From IMG/VR virus record IMGVR_UViG_2737471832_000006: DNA of 5,899 nucleotides, one strand, 5' to 3'. The notes beneath the pieces are model-generated. The model saw only the letters and a list, made by a program, of their open reading frames with translations. It was not told the DNA's origin and did no database searches. This DNA comes from a virus. Taxonomy: Duplodnaviria > Heunggongvirae > Uroviricota > Caudoviricetes. The position numbers were made by a program, and so were the translations under genes. Shown piece after piece: positions 1 to 5,899 of this stretch (position 1 is its first letter; every line of letters begins with the position of its first letter).

Positions 1-177
1 GGGTCGGCGAACTGCTCCCCTGGCGCGTAGCACTGCCGACTGAATAACACATCCCCGTCAATACGGTTCTTGCTGCACGCTTACTTATTGATGTGGGTGT
101 TAAATTGACAAGGTACCTGCGACAGGAGATTTCTTGTTTATTTGTAATGCCACTGTTCTTTATCAGGAAGGTGATTA

Positions 178-447
178 ATGGAAAATCTACTTTTTGTGAT
201 GTGTTGGATTAAAGATCATCATGTGATGTCATTAACTTTTGGCGTCTTATCTGCAATTTTATGGATTAAATCTGCTACAGCAAAAGTTGAGTTAGGCAAA
301 AAAATTGTCATGGTTACGTATGAAGATCCCGAACTTAACGTGAATCTCCATGATTTCTTCGCCACTGCGCGGCTTCAATCTAAGTACAATTCATTTGCAG
401 CATTGTCTGCAGCAGCAACCGCGCTATTCCAGATTATTGGTTTGTAA
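178..447 (+). CDS. Hypothetical small protein (89 aa), possibly membrane-associated; function unknown
   Basis: ATG at 178 is preceded by a strong Shine-Dalgarno-like AGGAAGGTG (about 165-173). The ORF ends at TAA 445-447 and has two hydrophobic stretches (LTFGVLSAILWI and FAALSAAATALFQIIGL). It sits in the AT-rich block and is convergent with the toxin-antitoxin operon. No family recognised. Confidence 0.4.
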   Translation: MENLLFVMCWIKDHHVMSLTFGVLSAILWIKSATAKVELGKKIVMVTYEDPELNVNLHDFFATARLQSKYNSFAALSAAATALFQIIGL

Positions 448-584
448 TGCTTACCAGCCCCAAATTAATCAATACCCAGTGGTATTAGCAATGTCCATTT
501 CAAGTACATACGTTCTTAAGACATTTGGGCACTGTCATGTCTGTCGGGGAGGAGGTTAAAATCCTCTCGTGCAAAATTTCTTAG

Positions 585-947
585 CTAGAGAATACAAAGA
601 ACATCATCTGGTGTTAACACAGAGTCTTCTACGTACTCAGGGTGGTTACGTAATACATCTCTCTGATGTCTCAAGATCTGCGCTGGAATTTCTTGCTCAT
701 CCACAATTTTGGCAGTATCCAGCAAAATACTGCCACACCTTATTTCCAGCGAAACAAAGCGATTCCACTCTGGACCATTAGAACACAAAAGGTCAAACAA
801 AACCTCACCTGTAGCCTGTGAATTGCCCAGTATAACAGAAAGCCTCTTCTCGATTTCGTGAACTGAAGTCAAGGGGTTCTCGTAGCCAGTCGCCATAACG
901 ACGGCAATGAGAGCCCCTGAGACGTTAACACCTGTTATTTCAAACAA
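585..947 (-). CDS. rnlB: Putative antitoxin of an RnlA/RnlB-like (LsoA/LsoB-like) type II toxin-antitoxin pair
   Basis: 120-codon ORF immediately downstream of the 356-aa HEPN toxin candidate. Its TTG start (945-947) overlaps the toxin stop (940-942), and AAGGA lies 8 nt upstream. An alternative ATG at 894-896 would give 103 aa. Size and position match RnlB (about 123 aa, encoded downstream of rnlA) from memory; the sequence itself is not independently recognised. Confidence 0.45.
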   Translation of the reverse strand: MFEITGVNVSGALIAVVMATGYENPLTSVHEIEKRLSVILGNSQATGEVLFDLLCSNGPEWNRFVSLEIRCGSILLDTAKIVDEQEIPAQILRHQRDVLRNHPEYVEDSVLTPDDVLCIL

Positions 948-2010
948 TATACAAATCCTTAATAATTCCCCATGCCTGTCTGGCCTTAGTCATCAGTCGT
1001 GCCATGTCAGAAACCATACGGCTTGTGTCGACAACTATCTCCATATGAAACAGGCCATGACGTTCTCTGTTAAAGAAAGTATAGGCATCATTAATGGTCT
1101 TAACCTTAGCTGACGATAAATTGCATCCAAATTGTTGTTTCAGAATAAATTCACTCCCAATTTTATCAAAATAACGCCCGAAACCATCCTGCGTGATTGG
1201 CATGCCATATCGGTACATTGTTGATTTAAGTACTCCCTCAACTGAACGTAATTCAGGATACAACAACATACAGTAATCAGGTAAATCGGGGGCGGCGAGT
1301 TTAACACACAGCCCAGAAACGAGCAATTTTTCAACATTCTTATGCAATAGTGGGTACGCATCCCCCATTTCACACTCTAGATGTGAGCGAGCAACTTCTT
1401 TCTGAACTATATACGCTTTGCCATCGTCCTGACGAATGAGAACTTTTTCCAGTCCTTGTAAATCGAGTAGCTCTGACAAGTTGAATATAAACACTCTATA
1501 ACATGACAATGGACGCCCTTGTATTTGTAGTGTTCCATTTCTGTGATGCAGACTAACTGTCAACTCATCCTGAAATTCTGGCGAATGAATTTTCCACACC
1601 GTTGTATGAGTGTTCCGTAAGTATTCGTAAAATTGTATATGTGGCTGCTCTGCTGAGAGCTGAAGTACAGATAAAACGTTCGCTTCAACGAACCCTTGTA
1701 ACACCATATTTACCTGTTCAAATTCTGCAGGATTGATGGTTTCATAGAGATCATCAGCCAACTCTTTTCCAAGATTATGATTAGCTCCTGTTTGATACTG
1801 GACTGTAGACGTCCCTCCGTTATTATAGAAAATGTTAACAGTTGCCAAAGCTTCTCCTGGTTTAGCAAACACAACCCGAAGTCCTGCTCTTGCACCAGGC
1901 ATTGGTCCAATTGAATGGACGGAATAGTTTTTATTTTCAATAAATGCCCTAGACGTAGCCTCAATAGTTGTCCGATCTAAATTTAAATTAGTGTAGTTCC
2001 TGACTGTCAT
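940..2010 (-). CDS. rnlA: RnlA/LsoA-like HEPN endoribonuclease toxin (356 aa)
   Basis: ATG at 2008-2010 (MTVRNYTNLNL...); the 37 codons upstream in the ORF track are read-through of the leader. Stop at 940-942. The 356-aa length matches RnlA (about 357 aa). A HEPN Rx4-6H signature (R-E-R-H-G-L-F-H, residues about 315-322) sits near the C-terminus, where the RnlA catalytic motif is located. A small overlapping gene follows, as for rnlA-rnlB. The local sequence is AT-rich, typical of acquired defence cargo. Confidence 0.6.
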   Translation of the reverse strand: MTVRNYTNLNLDRTTIEATSRAFIENKNYSVHSIGPMPGARAGLRVVFAKPGEALATVNIFYNNGGTSTVQYQTGANHNLGKELADDLYETINPAEFEQVNMVLQGFVEANVLSVLQLSAEQPHIQFYEYLRNTHTTVWKIHSPEFQDELTVSLHHRNGTLQIQGRPLSCYRVFIFNLSELLDLQGLEKVLIRQDDGKAYIVQKEVARSHLECEMGDAYPLLHKNVEKLLVSGLCVKLAAPDLPDYCMLLYPELRSVEGVLKSTMYRYGMPITQDGFGRYFDKIGSEFILKQQFGCNLSSAKVKTINDAYTFFNRERHGLFHMEIVVDTSRMVSDMARLMTKARQAWGIIKDLYIV

Positions 2011-2069
2011 TTGCTTAACCCTATAAAAAAATTTAGCAAACTCTACAATATAGCCCCTCTTTAGTCTAA

Positions 2070-2432
2070 TCAGGCGCTGTATCCTGAAATCGGGTACCGA
2101 TAATATCCCTCCTGCAGCCATGTGTTGGTGTTAACAAGATACTGTGTATCAATTGAATCCGTCAGATTGCAAAAGTTGATGCCTCTTTCGCGCAGTTCCT
2201 CCACCAGCACGACAAGATGCCGCATACTGCGCCTCAGTCGGTCCAGTTTCCAGACCACCAGCGTGTCACCTGCCGATAATGTCCTGAGCAGCTTTTTCAG
2301 TCCTGGTCTGTCGGACTTTGTACCGCTTATCTTGTCTTCAAAAATCAGCTCGCATCCTGCACAGTTCAACGCATTACGTTGTAGATCGGTGTTCTGGTCA
2401 TTTGTTGATACGCGAACATAGCCAATAAGCAT
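2070..2432 (-). pseudogene. pin: Serine DNA invertase (Pin/Gin/Hin/Cin family), 3'-truncated; only the N-terminal catalytic core is retained
   Basis: Translation from ATG 2430-2432 (SD AGGAGGAG just upstream) reads MLIGYVRVSTNDQNTDLQRNAL...GDTLVVWKLDRLRRSMRHLVVLVEELRERGINFCNLTDSIDT, the hallmark N-terminus of Pin/Gin/Hin invertases including the catalytic Ser in the RVST motif. After about residue 97 (near 2141) the frame runs into unrelated sequence (QYLVNTNTWLQEGYYRYPISGYSA) and stops at 2070-2072. The conserved SSPMGRFFFH continuation, E-helix and C-terminal HTH domain are absent. Confidence 0.8.
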
Positions 2433-2461
2433 GATAGCTCCTCCTGACAAAAACAGGAACG

Positions 2462-2935
2462 ATGCCATTTGCGCGCTATTTCTGCATTTTCATAAACGTT
2501 CAATTGGGAGAAGCGGCAAAACGTAATGTCGGAACCGGTAATAATCAACTCCCAGACATGTCCGCATTTGGTATGTCGCGAAACGGACAAACTGCCTGGG
2601 ATATTCTCCCAAATGGTATGATTCGACAGGTTGGTACTGTGACACTGACGCCTGTTGGTAATTTCAACGCAATTACTCTTGGTGGAGTGCTGTACTACAC
2701 CCATTACTACAGGGTTAATTTCCCCAGACAATTCCCAAATGCACAAATAGCAACGCTGGCAACACTAGCGAGTTACAGCTTTTCGACCCAGTCATCAATG
2801 GCTGGGAAATCACTGGCAACGCATCGCGATACTGATTCTGGCACTGACGTATCAAGAACGCGATTCACTGTGTCGTATACGACACCCAATCTCGGCGAAA
2901 TTCCGACTTTGCATTTTGAAGCAATAGGATACTAA
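2462..2935 (+). CDS. Alternative tail-fibre C-terminal cassette (S'v / StfE-like), promoterless; expressible only after inversion fuses it to the constant part of stf
   Basis: The ORF ends ...LGEIPTLHFEAIGY, paralleling the Stf C-terminus ...DCCFIALGY. Its N-terminal part contains QLGEAAK...LPDMSAFG, paralleling Stf GLGETINK...ISDVSAFRNALQLG just after the predicted crossover site. It is in opposite orientation to stf/tfa and adjacent to the invertase, as in Mu G and e14 P segments. The ATG at 2462 has no convincing RBS, so the true coding part probably begins at the crossover site near 2500. Confidence 0.55.
   Translation: MPFARYFCIFINVQLGEAAKRNVGTGNNQLPDMSAFGMSRNGQTAWDILPNGMIRQVGTVTLTPVGNFNAITLGGVLYYTHYYRVNFPRQFPNAQIATLATLASYSFSTQSSMAGKSLATHRDTDSGTDVSRTRFTVSYTTPNLGEIPTLHFEAIGY
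2487..2512. repeat. Candidate degenerate invertase crossover site (partner of the site at 4021-4046), invertase-proximal end of the invertible segment
   Basis: ttttcataaacgttcaattgggagaa matches the reverse complement of 4021-4046 at 17 of 26 positions and encodes the shared LGE junction. The AAACC-NN-GGTTT core is degraded, consistent with a frozen switch. Confidence 0.3.
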
Positions 2936-2937
2936 AT

Positions 2938-3171
2938 ATGGAGAATATGTATTTCAGCCCAACGACCGTTGGTTTTTATGTTTCTGAACAAGAGCGACCT
3001 GATGATGCGGTTGAAGTCTCGCCAGAGGTGGAGGCATTTTTGAGGGAGTGTGTTATCTGGGGAGCGGATACATTTAACGTAGAGCGAGATGCAGCAACGG
3101 TGACATATCCAACAGAACTGCTTGAATATGTCACCACCTACAACGCCCCCGTTAAATATCCTGCGGATTGA
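2938..3171 (+). CDS. Short ORF (77 aa) in the position of the alternative tail fibre assembly gene (U' / TfaE-like); possibly a truncated or divergent chaperone
   Basis: ATG at 2938 lies 2 nt after the stop of the S'v cassette, with AGGA about 9 nt upstream. It is convergent with tfa, and the two 3' ends overlap by 20 bp (3152-3171). It lacks the C-terminal KYRVLL-RVD motif seen in the Tfa on the other strand, so the assignment is positional only. Confidence 0.35.
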   Translation: MENMYFSPTTVGFYVSEQERPDDAVEVSPEVEAFLRECVIWGADTFNVERDAATVTYPTELLEYVTTYNAPVKYPAD

Positions 3172-3562
3172 CAGGCCATACGGGTTTTGCTGTATCAACG
3201 CGCATCAGCAAGACCCGGTATTTTTTCCATTCAGATAACGCGGCGGTTTCTTCTGCCGTCGCGATTTCCGCATCAAAAGCATCCTGTCTCCAGGCTATTT
3301 CCTTATCAGCCATAGAACGCAATACCGTTCTTTTCTGTTCAGCCTGAATAATCTGTTGTTCAGCGGAGAGTGGCGGGATATCAATCCACGCAGGATTACC
3401 ATTTTTATCAGCCCCCAGCGTTTTGCCTTGTGGCGCTACGCCTGTGTAAATTGCCATTGTTTCATCATCAACATCAACGCCATTTTCAGGCCATGAACCG
3501 GCGCTGATATATACCTCTTTTAGTGCTTTCGGATAGAAAGAGCCTTTATAAAATTTATTCAT
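3152..3562 (-). CDS. tfa: Tail fibre assembly protein (Tfa, lambda Tfa / Mu U family), 136 aa
   Basis: ATG at 3560-3562 (MNKFYKGSFYP...) lies 2 nt after the stf stop. The C-terminus ...EWKKYRVLLMRVDTAKPVWPVNP matches the conserved Tfa C-terminal motif (lambda Tfa ...WKKYRVLLNRVDT...). The ORF track's earlier start at 3592 is a TTG inside the end of stf. Confidence 0.8.
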   Translation of the reverse strand: MNKFYKGSFYPKALKEVYISAGSWPENGVDVDDETMAIYTGVAPQGKTLGADKNGNPAWIDIPPLSAEQQIIQAEQKRTVLRSMADKEIAWRQDAFDAEIATAEETAALSEWKKYRVLLMRVDTAKPVWPVNPQDI

Positions 3563-3564
3563 TC

Positions 3565-5899
3565 TTAATACCCCAGCGCGATAAAACAACAATCTTCGGT
3601 GCCCTCTCCGGATGGCGACCAGTTCTGAATACTGATATGCGTTCTGCTGGCAATACGCACATTCATCGCGGCATTGTAGCCAGATGTTCCACGGTTTCCG
3701 GTCGCAAATAAGCCTGCATAGGGAAAAGCAAATGGTAAGGCATATCCAGCATCAGCTCCCTTTTGTGTTGCCACCGTTCCCCACTGCAACATAAGTTTCA
3801 CCGGGTTTCCTGTCGTCGCAATGCATGGAATGTAGATGTAGCCATTCCCTGACATCATTGACCTGAAGCTGTCTAAACCCAGTAACTTCGAGGCATTATC
3901 TGCTCCAACATCTCGTGTTGCGGCGGTCCCTAACTGGAGCGCATTTCGGAAGGCTGATACATCAGAAATATCAGCTCCATTAGCCGATTTCTGCATAGCT
4001 CCGGAGGCTTTATTTATCGTTTCGCCCAAACCAAGGTATGCGAGAAGACCAGCTACATCCTTTCCACTCAAATTAGTCAGCGTATTGTCCAGCGGTTGTT
4101 TGCCCGCCAGTGCGCTCTGTACTTCGCTTTTGCTGTAGGCATCCAGATCTTTAGGCGTAAGCGTAATATCCTTCGTGCCGTCAAACGGAACGCCGTTGAT
4201 ATTCCGTGCAGTCTGTAGTTTTGTGGCAGTTGCAGCATTACCAGTGGTGTTCTGATTACCCGTAGTGTTTACACCTGGAAGGTTAATATTTGCAGAACCG
4301 TCGAAAACAACTCCACCGATAGATCTTGCCGTCTGCAATTTCGTGGCTGTACTTGCATTACCATTCAATGAACCAGTTAATCCACCTGTAACAGACAACG
4401 GACCTGAAACTGTTCCTCCGGTTGTTGGCAGTGCTCCAATATCTAACGGCGTCGGTTTCTGATGTGTGCTATACATCGTATAAACAACACCATAGGTAAC
4501 GCTGGAAGGCTTACTCGCTGAATATGTTGGCGAGGTATAAACAGAAACTGACGCATTTGCAGTACAATCCCAATGGATATTTACACTCGTCGCATAATTG
4601 CCAATCTCAACGTAAATATCATATGTATCGCCGGATGTGTTGATCCAGGCGAAATTCGTTAATCCGACGGCTGTACGCTTCCACAAAGCCCCGGTAATTC
4701 CTTTGGGGTTTCCATTGCCTGCTCGTAGAACCAGTTCTGAAATGCCTGCCTGATGTGGGGAACCGACGTTGTAACCAGCGCCACCAATCAATGCGATGTA
4801 AACGATGGAACTCGCCTGTGGCATGGTTACCGTTGCTAATTTGAACCAACCAGCACCACCGCTGAATGACATTGTTGTTGAGTTAAGCGTACCAATATCT
4901 TTCGGCGTCAGTGTTATATCCGCTGAAAGCGCCTTACCATTCACCTTACGGGCAGAAGGTACCCGACCATTCGCATTATCATTAGCTGCTTTCACTGCTT
5001 TCGGTGTCGCGGCAAGCGTTTCAGATGCGCTGTTGGTTGCACTACTGAGCTGGACAATTCCTTTTTGTGCTGTCGTAGCGTCCTGTGCGGTGTATTTCCC
5101 GTTAGCCAGGTCATACGCGGCCTTAACGGCTTTTGGCGTTGCCGCCTGTGACTCGGAAGTGCTGTTGGTCGCACTGCTGAGCTGTACTACCCCCTTTTTC
5201 GTCGTGCTCGCATCCTCAAGCGCCACAGCGGATGCAATATCCTCTGCCCGTTTTGCTGCTGTCTCGGCGCGCGTTGCCGCGGATTCCGCCGTACTTTTGC
5301 TCTGAGCTGCCGCCGTCGCACTGCCAGCTGCCTCTGTCGCCTTCGTGGATGCCGTCGTGGCGCTGCCCTTCGCTGCTGACGCTTGTCTGGTCGCCTCATC
5401 TTTTGAAGCAGACGCCGATGATGCCGATGACGCCGCCGAACTGGCGGACGATGCGGCAGCCGTTTTTGAGGATTCTGCACGGGTTTCCGACGCTTTCGCG
5501 TTCGTTTCGGATGTCTTCGCTGCGGAAGCTGACCTCGCTGCTGCGCTGGCCTGTTCAGTGGCTTCGCCAGCCTTCGTTGTGGCTGTTGAAGCAGACGATG
5601 CGGCACTTTCTGCCGACTTTCCGGCAGCGGTGGCACTGGCTGAGGCCTGCCCGGCACTTGTTGATGCGGCACTGGCAGATGATGCAGCCGCTGTTTTTGA
5701 GCCTGCCGCAGCTGAGGCACTCTGTCCCGCTGCCGTTTCAGAAGACCTGGCGTTCGTCTCGGACGTTTTTGCCGCCTTCGCGGAATTTCCTGCCGCCGTT
5801 GCCGAGGAAGCGGCACTACTGGCGCTTGATGATGCGTTCGTTTCTGATGATTTCGCTGCCTCTTTTGAGGCCGCCGCATCCCGGGCTGAGGTGGCAGCT
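3565..5899 (-). CDS. stf: Side tail fibre protein (Stf-like), 5'-partial; gene continues beyond the window end
   Basis: This minus-strand frame is open from the window edge to the stop at 3565-3567; I checked every codon from 5227 to 5899 and found no stop. The ORF track's start at 5226 is only an internal GTG. The translation of 5227-5899 is Ala/Ser/Thr/Lys/Glu-rich with ...AAKTSETNAKASE...-type repeats typical of the Stf N-terminal shaft. It is followed by the duplicated KG(V/I)VQLSSATNS-SE--AATPKAVKAA motif found in lambda Stf / Mu S / P2 H fibres, then a Gly/Thr/Asn-rich distal region ending ...IALGY. The 230-aa Arg-rich ORF (5187-5879) and the 166-aa plus-strand ORF (4805-5305) are alternative-frame artefacts of this gene. 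Confidence 0.9.
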   Translation of the reverse strand, partial: AATSARDAAASKEAAKSSETNASSSASSAASSATAAGNSAKAAKTSETNARSSETAAGQSASAAAGSKTAAASSASAASTSAGQASASATAAGKSAESAASSASTATTKAGEATEQASAAARSASAAKTSETNAKASETRAESSKTAAASSASSAASSASSASASKDEATRQASAAKGSATTASTKATEAAGSATAAAQSKSTAESAATRAETAAKRAEDIASAVALEDASTTKKGVVQLSSATNSTSESQAATPKAVKAAYDLANGKYTAQDATTAQKGIVQLSSATNSASETLAATPKAVKAANDNANGRVPSARKVNGKALSADITLTPKDIGTLNSTTMSFSGGAGWFKLATVTMPQASSIVYIALIGGAGYNVGSPHQAGISELVLRAGNGNPKGITGALWKRTAVGLTNFAWINTSGDTYDIYVEIGNYATSVNIHWDCTANASVSVYTSPTYSASKPSSVTYGVVYTMYSTHQKPTPLDIGALPTTGGTVSGPLSVTGGLTGSLNGNASTATKLQTARSIGGVVFDGSANINLPGVNTTGNQNTTGNAATATKLQTARNINGVPFDGTKDITLTPKDLDAYSKSEVQSALAGKQPLDNTLTNLSGKDVAGLLAYLGLGETINKASGAMQKSANGADISDVSAFRNALQLGTAATRDVGADNASKLLGLDSFRSMMSGNGYIYIPCIATTGNPVKLMLQWGTVATQKGADAGYALPFAFPYAGLFATGNRGTSGYNAAMNVRIASRTHISIQNWSPSGEGTEDCCFIALGY
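4021..4046. repeat. Invertase crossover site (hix/gix/pix-like 26-bp imperfect palindrome) inside stf at the constant/variable junction
   Basis: TTCGCCCAAACC-AA-GGTATGCGAGAA has the AAACC-NN-GGT(T/A)T core of Hin/Gin/Pin recombination sites (compare hix TTCTTGAAAACCAAGGTTTTTGATAA, recalled from memory). The two half-sites are 9 of 12 symmetric. On the coding strand it encodes LAYLGLGE, the point after which Stf and the S'v cassette diverge. Confidence 0.5.

Follow-up and report, generated by a model that had tools for sequence, protein, structure and literature searches.

A second RnlA-RnlB allele carried as accessory cargo by Escherichia coli prophages

RnlA-RnlB is a textbook toxin-antitoxin (TA) anti-phage system with solved structures. 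In a 5,899-nucleotide (nt) stretch of tailed-phage DNA (Caudoviricetes; IMG/VR record IMGVR_UViG_2737471832_000006; the whole stretch is hereafter called the window), two overlapping minus-strand genes had been taken, in a reading made from the letters alone (the sequence-only reading), for a prophage-borne pair of the RnlA-RnlB or LsoA-LsoB kind, with a toxin of 356 amino acids (aa) and an antitoxin of about 120 aa. The locus raises the question of whether this pair is a genuine member of the family, in what kind of element it is carried and whether it can be expected to act as the E. coli K-12 system does. Our answer is that the pair is very probably a functional allelic variant of the type II TA and anti-phage module RnlA-RnlB, situated in an accessory region at the attachment-site (att)-proximal end of a temperate phage genome, as judged by comparison with sequenced relatives and solved structures.

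Family membership of the toxin and antitoxin

Both open reading frames (ORFs) were confirmed on the minus strand, at 940-2010 and 585-947. The larger, an rnlA-family toxin gene with an ATG start, encodes a 356-aa protein that BLASTP aligned end to end with K-12 RnlA at 255 of 357 identities (71%) and a single 1-residue gap, and a phmmer search of PDB sequences matched residues 1-356 to the K-12 RnlA crystal structures 6Y2P_A and 4I8O_A with an E value of 7.9e-167. Protein searches and Pfam models had been named by the sequence-only reading as means of checking it, and for both partners they bore it out. All four Pfam RnlA models matched the toxin far over their curated cut-offs, namely RnlA_toxin_N (PF19417) at residues 6-86 and RnlA_toxin (PF15935) at 98-183, followed in the C-terminal part by RnlA-toxin_DBD (PF19034) at 203-324 and HEPN_RnaseLS (PF18869) at 234-336. 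As judged from these profile matches, the complete NTD/TBP1, NRD/TBP2 and DBD/HEPN three-domain layout is present in the toxin, and domain boundaries taken from K-12 place TBP1/NTD at aa 1-90 (window 1741-2010), TBP2/NRD at aa 91-197 (1420-1740) and HEPN/DBD at aa 198-356 (943-1419), all on the minus strand. A longer in-frame ORF of 393 aa, which begins at ATG 2121, was rejected; we place the rnlA start at 2010 because homology to K-12 RnlA begins exactly at Met 2010 and RefSeq uses the same position.

The sequence-only reading had located a HEPN Rx4-6H motif, RERHGLFH, at residues 315-322 of the large protein. That string does occupy residues 315-322 (window 1045-1068), and its position holds up in the alignment with K-12 R318 and H323, but R315, which corresponds to V316 in K-12, falls outside the motif; the true HEPN Rx4H pair is R317/H322, within R317-H-G-L-F-H322 at window 1045-1062 on the minus strand. 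With R255 and E258, whose minus-strand codons lie at 1246-1248 and 1237-1239 (together 1237-1248), these residues align with K-12 RnlA R255, E258, R318 and H323, and all four are kept in the window toxin. Alanine substitution showed each of the four to be essential for the activity and toxicity of K-12 RnlA (Garcia-Rodriguez et al., PMC8266594), with R318A and H323A abolishing its activity (PMC8266594). By the same alignment, the dimer-switch residues V206 and D245, for which Garcia-Rodriguez et al. made the K-12 RnlA mutants V206R and D245R (PMC8266594), are also kept. A single-sequence AlphaFold2 model of the toxin (mean predicted local distance difference test score 39.6, predicted template modelling score 0.27) was too poor for its fold to be read, and we infer the HEPN fold around the motif from the nearly gapless 71% identity (one 1-residue gap) to the solved structures. 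By every sequence-level comparison made, the window toxin is a member of the RnlA family, that is, of the RNase LS / RnlA-LsoA branch of HEPN. Neither toxin nor antitoxin had a match in NCBIfam or PADLOC v2.0.0, which is put down to what those libraries contain and does not count against membership, the Pfam and PDB matches being decisive.

The smaller ORF, at 585-947, is an rnlB-family antitoxin gene of 120 aa with a TTG start. Its product matches the Pfam model RnlB_antitoxin (PF15933; E 3.5e-24, over the curated cut-off) and, among PDB sequences, 6Y2P_C, which is K-12 RnlB in the RnlA:RnlB crystal structure (E 4.4e-51), with 82 of 116 positions (71%) identical to K-12 RnlB. The antitoxin start had been left ambiguous between TTG at 947 and ATG at 896. 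It is settled for TTG 947, and ATG 896 is rejected, because 15 of the 17 residues ahead of Met18 (the ATG at 896) are identical to the N-terminus of K-12 RnlB and are present in the crystallised chain 6Y2P_C, because K-12 rnlB is likewise TTG-started (in tat-att-gtt-tga) with the same 8-nt overlap with rnlA, and because an AAGGA Shine-Dalgarno sequence 8 nt upstream of the TTG is conserved in K-12; RefSeq agrees on this start. The two ORFs thus overlap by 8 nt at 940-947, where the rnlB start overlaps the rnlA stop, and the layout is that of an RnlAB module, with the cognate RnlB-family gene directly downstream of the toxin, to which it is coupled in translation, an order opposite to the usual one for TA pairs. 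The locus is already known, as RefSeq names the products of loci identical to the window genes "RnlA family toxin" (WP_001730411.1) and "RnlB family antitoxin" (WP_000461705.1).

The K-12 pair, which lies on the cryptic prophage CP4-57 (PDB 4I8O, 6Y2P), has the same three-domain TBP1-TBP2-HEPN toxin as the window pair (357 versus 356 aa) and shares with it R255, E258, the Rx4H motif, the antitoxin fold family, the toxin-first order, the 8-nt overlap and the TTG rnlB start. The two pairs differ by 29% amino-acid divergence in both partners, with 72.9% nucleotide identity; RnlB ends in …DDVLCIL in the window (120 aa) and in …DDVRQVLSMDF in K-12 (123 aa), and 3 of the 11 residues of the K-12 RnlA loop T326-D336, which becomes ordered upon RnlB binding, are substituted in the window toxin. 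The flanks are entirely different, with a lambdoid tail-fibre/invertase region in the window and abpAB, yfjM and yfjP in CP4-57. As blastn homology to K-12 is limited to window 601-2057, which covers the two ORFs and about 50-60 nt upstream, the unit common to the window and CP4-57 is the operon alone. The sequence-only reading had kept in reserve a new HEPN TA variant only distantly related to RnlAB. The 29% difference from K-12 RnlA and RnlB and the flanks outside about 601-2070, which are unrelated to CP4-57, would be expected of such a variant, but the 71% full-length identity and the same domains, motif, gene order and overlap refute it, and we regard it as vanishingly improbable.

The LsoA-LsoB half of the earlier proposal fared less well. 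LsoA-LsoB, from the E. coli O157:H7 plasmid pOSAK1 (PDB 5HY3), belongs to the same RnlA/LsoA HEPN RNase family, has the same toxin-then-antitoxin layout, and includes in LsoA an anti-T4 system inhibited by Dmd (PMC8266594, PMC5308261). The match of the window toxin to LsoA 5HY3 is weak (E 7.5e-14, residues 65-333), its identity to homologues on E. coli plasmids of 3.7-3.8 kb is about 21%, and, whereas LsoA-LsoB is plasmid-borne, the window allele is on the chromosome in all 73 genomes that carry it. The window pair thus falls outside the LsoA-LsoB subfamily. More distant are the HEPN-MNT TA systems, such as Shewanella SO_3166/SO_3165, whose toxins are, like the window toxin, HEPN RNases with an Rx4-6H motif and which form a canonical HEPN dimer (PMC8266594). 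HEPN-MNT toxins are single-domain proteins with a nucleotidyltransferase antitoxin that fills the active-site groove (PMC8266594), whereas the window toxin has three domains and its antitoxin the RnlB fold; K-12 RnlB, unlike the HEPN-MNT antitoxin, blocks access from the sides (PMC8266594).

Homology to K-12 extends upstream of rnlA over about 60 nt, and this region, at 2011-2070 on the minus strand, is a candidate shared promoter/operator. Within it, at 2038-2050 (minus strand) and 28-40 nt ahead of the rnlA ATG, the 13-nt block TATTGTAGAGTTT is shared unchanged with K-12, in contrast to the neighbouring upstream sequence, which has diverged. The block may be a shared promoter or regulator site, which would imply a very short leader. 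A weak -35-like TTGTAG stands 16 nt from a -10-like TATAGG in the same TATTGTAGAGTTT region.

Prophage context of the module

Upstream of rnlA, the window contains a serine invertase cut down to its N-terminal catalytic domain, an invertible tail-fibre segment, a gene for tail-fibre assembly and, running off the end of the window, a lambdoid side-tail-fibre gene. From position 85 on, the window shares 99.8% identity with strain 5CRE51, except for one inversion, and this strain carries the DNA in a near-complete lambdoid prophage whose integrase abuts tRNA-Thr and for which a 48-bp direct repeat of the tRNA-Thr 3' end is found at 17473-17520 of the 5CRE51 locus (L001). There rnlAB occupies 20086-21511 of the same locus, between both att copies (some 2.6 kb in from the distal one) and downstream of the tail-fibre/invertase genes; in the circular phage genome, this position is that of the accessory region beside attP. 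In strain A2, the block directly follows ssrA, where a different lambdoid prophage ends. As rnlAB lies within att-bounded limits in 5CRE51 and at a prophage end in A2, these observations support the reading of rnlAB as prophage accessory cargo, between att repeats and outside the core modules, and the earlier claim of prophage cargo, borne out here by a near-identical genome, stands. Carriage of RnlAB by phages is not a new idea in general, since a survey preprint has reported RnlAB-type systems to be commoner in phage than in cellular genomes (10.1101/2024.10.26.620412).

The block, which runs from orf89 through rnlB and rnlA to the invertase remnant (from about 85 to 2358-2513 in the window), is found again elsewhere at an identity of at least 98.9%. 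Three contigs in IMG/VR matched RnlA, two of which are viral contigs carrying the window allele. In the IMG/VR contigs L004 and L005 (1-7500), the invertase remnant-rnlA-rnlB block, 98.9% identical to window 178-2513, follows a Mu-like tail module made up of a DNA-circularisation/baseplate hub, a baseplate wedge, a tail fibre and an assembly protein, which replaces the lambdoid side tail fibre; similarity to the window stops at the invertase crossover site. Matches to PHROG profiles were weak (E 3.6e-8 and 8.2e-7).

The window and K-12 pairs are both found on integrative or prophage-type elements, and these share a further link to ssrA, the gene for transfer-messenger RNA, at which CP4-57 sits in K-12: an att core from the ssrA 3' end is present in or next to the window segment. 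In 5CRE51, 28 nt of the ssrA 3' end recur without a mismatch at L001 19351-19378, 235 nt beyond the equivalent of window position 85 and inside the tRNA-Thr prophage, and homology with the ssrA-integrated prophage of A2 begins exactly at this copy. By its sequence and place it looks like a fossil attP core, which suggests that the rnlAB-bearing end once belonged to an ssrA-integrating phage and was swapped by recombination into a thrW-integrating one.

Left of the thrW att repeat, a second integrase-bearing island stands in tandem, both in 5CRE51 (L001 11906-17311) and in a further carrier (L008 1-6295). The island of L008 is P4-satellite-like, with psu, ogr/delta and primase genes and a reverse transcriptase, and that of 5CRE51 has other, apparently defence-type cargo, an HsdM-type methyltransferase and an ORC/CDC6 AAA ATPase.

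Selection, decay and predicted mechanism

The window allele, at at least 99% identity, was found in 73 of 5426 complete E. coli genomes (about 1.3%), and the carriers listed came from humans, pigs, chickens, platypus, soil and wastewater. The K-12-type allele, at 72.9% nucleotide identity, was found in 363 genomes, many of which are laboratory K-12 derivatives. A scan of one genome per species returned only the K-12-type allele in E. coli, and the window allele was not found in it outside E. coli. Relative to K-12, the ratio of nonsynonymous to synonymous substitution rates (dN/dS) is about 0.11 for rnlA (0.14, 0.05 and 0.13 across its three domains), and for rnlB it is about 0.21; in both genes, synonymous sites are nearly saturated. 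As these ratios indicate, both rnlA and rnlB have diverged under purifying selection.

These values bear on whether the pair might be a decaying, non-functional relic of a defective prophage. An adjacent invertase that is a pseudogene and the insertion sequence (IS) elements close by, namely an IS66 end at window 1-84 and IS1, IS2 and ISVsa5 in other carriers, would fit such a relic. Both ORFs are, however, intact and full length with all catalytic residues kept, their dN/dS ratios are low, and the allele is kept in 73 genomes of diverse host and geographical origin, so that we consider decay very improbable for the pair as a whole. In two to three of the 73 carriers, the toxin is disrupted by an IS element or lost: in strain CUPS TF 6/1_01 (L009), rnlA is split by ISVsa5 (IS4-family) with a 9-bp target duplication at window-equivalent 1414-1422 and rnlB is intact, one further carrier has an IS2 insertion that inactivates the toxin, again with rnlB intact, and another keeps just a remnant of rnlB. 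Inactivation of the toxin with retention of rnlB is the usual decay pattern of TA loci.

All structural determinants of the K-12 system are conserved in the window proteins, and the K-12 mechanism is for this reason the best explanation for what the window pair would do. Free K-12 RnlA rests as a non-canonical dimer, its activity needs a canonical HEPN dimer that joins two Rx4H motifs, and RnlB keeps the substrate out by binding that canonical dimer at both sides of the cleft (PMC8266594). RnlB is unstable, so that when T4 shuts off host gene expression it vanishes and RnlA degrades late T4 mRNAs; T4 Dmd stands in for RnlB as an inhibitor of RnlA, and RNase HI stimulates RnlA and is also required for its inhibition by RnlB (PMC5308261, PMC11869752). 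By analogy, window RnlB would be proteolytically labile (Lon/ClpXP) and would not be replenished once a lytic phage such as T4 had shut off host transcription, upon which the freed RnlA, aided by RNase HI, would degrade phage mRNAs late in infection and abort phage growth, unless the phage brought an antitoxin substitute of its own, as T4 does with Dmd. The instability of RnlB would in addition make the pair an addiction module and so favour persistence of the DNA segment.

Several points weigh against a functional defence module in the accessory region of a temperate phage. The toxicity, neutralisation, RnlB instability and phage restriction that we infer for the window pair are transferred from K-12, and its defence phenotype against natural phages is uncertain, since even K-12 RnlAB visibly restricts only T4 that lacks dmd (PMC11869752). 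A tblastn search (E at most 1e-5) of 50,697 deposited phage genomes returned no RnlA homologue, so that carriage by a virion-forming phage finds no support among deposited phage genomes, though a phage not yet sequenced may package it; in L008, the block lies in a thrW prophage remnant stripped of every structural gene. The neighbouring invertase is a pseudogene, and a few of the 73 carriers have lost or disrupted the toxin. On the side of expression, the rnlA Shine-Dalgarno sequence is weaker than its K-12 counterpart, and a scan for consensus promoters and terminators returned 5 sites, against 5.6 expected by chance, none of them upstream of rnlA, so that the rnlA promoter is proposed from the conserved upstream block only.

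Part of this evidence would suit a genuine RnlAB whose main role is not useful phage defence but selfish stabilisation (addiction) of the prophage end, in which any deletion of the segment would carry a penalty, as stable RnlA would be released once labile RnlB was gone. Persistence of the module in the L008 remnant after the loss of all structural genes, its transfer between different prophage backbones in one piece with a dead invertase fragment, the restriction by K-12 RnlAB of dmd-deficient T4 only (PMC11869752) and the designation of TA systems as addiction modules owing to their labile antitoxins (PMC5308261) all agree with this. An addiction role is, however, compatible with defence, RnlAB is an experimentally established anti-phage system (PMC8266594, PMC5308261), defence genes are typically found where this pair is, beside phage attachment sites and in the company of other defence cargo, and the existence of IS-disrupted toxin alleles means that the locus can be inactivated without lethal consequence. 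We consider addiction as the main role unlikely, if still credible, and keep to the reading of the pair as an anti-phage module.

A bolder extension of that reading is that the window allele forms a separate specificity class, in which toxin and antitoxin have co-diverged by 29%, including the RnlA loop and the RnlB C-terminus, so that its RnlB may not cross-protect against K-12 RnlA and its RnlA may escape T4 Dmd, and that the module is also spreading between unrelated temperate phages (thrW and ssrA lambdoids and the phage with the Mu-like tail) by recombination in the conserved invertase/crossover-site DNA with which it is fused. We hold this combination to be rather doubtful. Escape of RnlA from T4 Dmd, if true, would mean protection against wild-type T-even phages. 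The descriptive gain is that about 1.3% of complete E. coli genomes carry a second RnlAB allele, 71% identical to that of K-12 and fused, in the carriers examined, to the same invertase remnant at the att end of prophages that differ in backbone and integration site. Such an allele is a convenient natural variant for the evolution of RnlA-RnlB and RnlA-Dmd specificity, and its specificity class (RnlB cross-talk, Dmd sensitivity) and the hopping of the invertase-fused module between prophages are the points of mild interest.

Flanking features of the window

The invertase next to rnlA is a truncated Pin/Gin-type serine invertase pseudogene at 2145-2432 on the minus strand (ORF 2070-2468), in which Pfam finds the Resolvase N-terminal domain only. 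The remnant covers Resolvase profile positions 2-106 of 145 and ends after about residue 96 (…TDSIDT), so that the C-terminal DNA-binding domain is missing, and RefSeq describes it as "recombinase family protein, incomplete, missing C-terminus". It presumably also carries the substitutions DRLRRS and NFCNL relative to Pin. Its resemblance to intact invertases ends near window 2140, the junction between the tail-fibre region and the rnlAB segment, and the same breakpoint was present in every carrier examined.

Inversion breakpoints relative to 5CRE51 revealed two 26-bp Hin/Gin/Pin-type crossover sites in inverted orientation, which a repeat search had not reported, at window 2487-2512 and 4021-4046. 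Their sequences are TTCTCCCAATTG-AA-CGTTTATGAAAA for the first site (reverse complement) and TTCGCCCAAACC-AA-GGTATGCGAGAA for the other, and the segment between them spans about 2500-4033. The sites flank an invertible cassette of tail-fibre C-terminus and assembly gene, which has the opposite orientation in 5CRE51; in the window orientation, the side-tail-fibre ORF runs unbroken from the end of the window as far as 3565. Since the adjacent invertase is a pseudogene in both the window and 5CRE51, the inversion is either older than the truncation of the invertase or was catalysed in trans by the invertase of another prophage.

On the other side of the operon, the hypothetical gene orf89 (178-447, plus strand; 89 aa; RefSeq WP_000429347.1) is convergent with rnlB. 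It adjoins rnlB in 5CRE51 and A2 and accompanies rnlAB in most contexts examined, with IS1 in its place in L008 and L009. Its product has hydrophobic N- and C-terminal stretches and a full-length match to phrog_14357 (unknown function; E 4e-33), with no match in Pfam or NCBIfam and no convincing one in PADLOC.

In the collection of complete E. coli genomes, none reaches 80% coverage of the window. The first 84-87 bases of the window are identical to the end of an IS66-family element, with ISEc22/tnpC matches on many E. coli plasmids and chromosomes, and this insertion is absent from 5CRE51, whose match starts at window 85.

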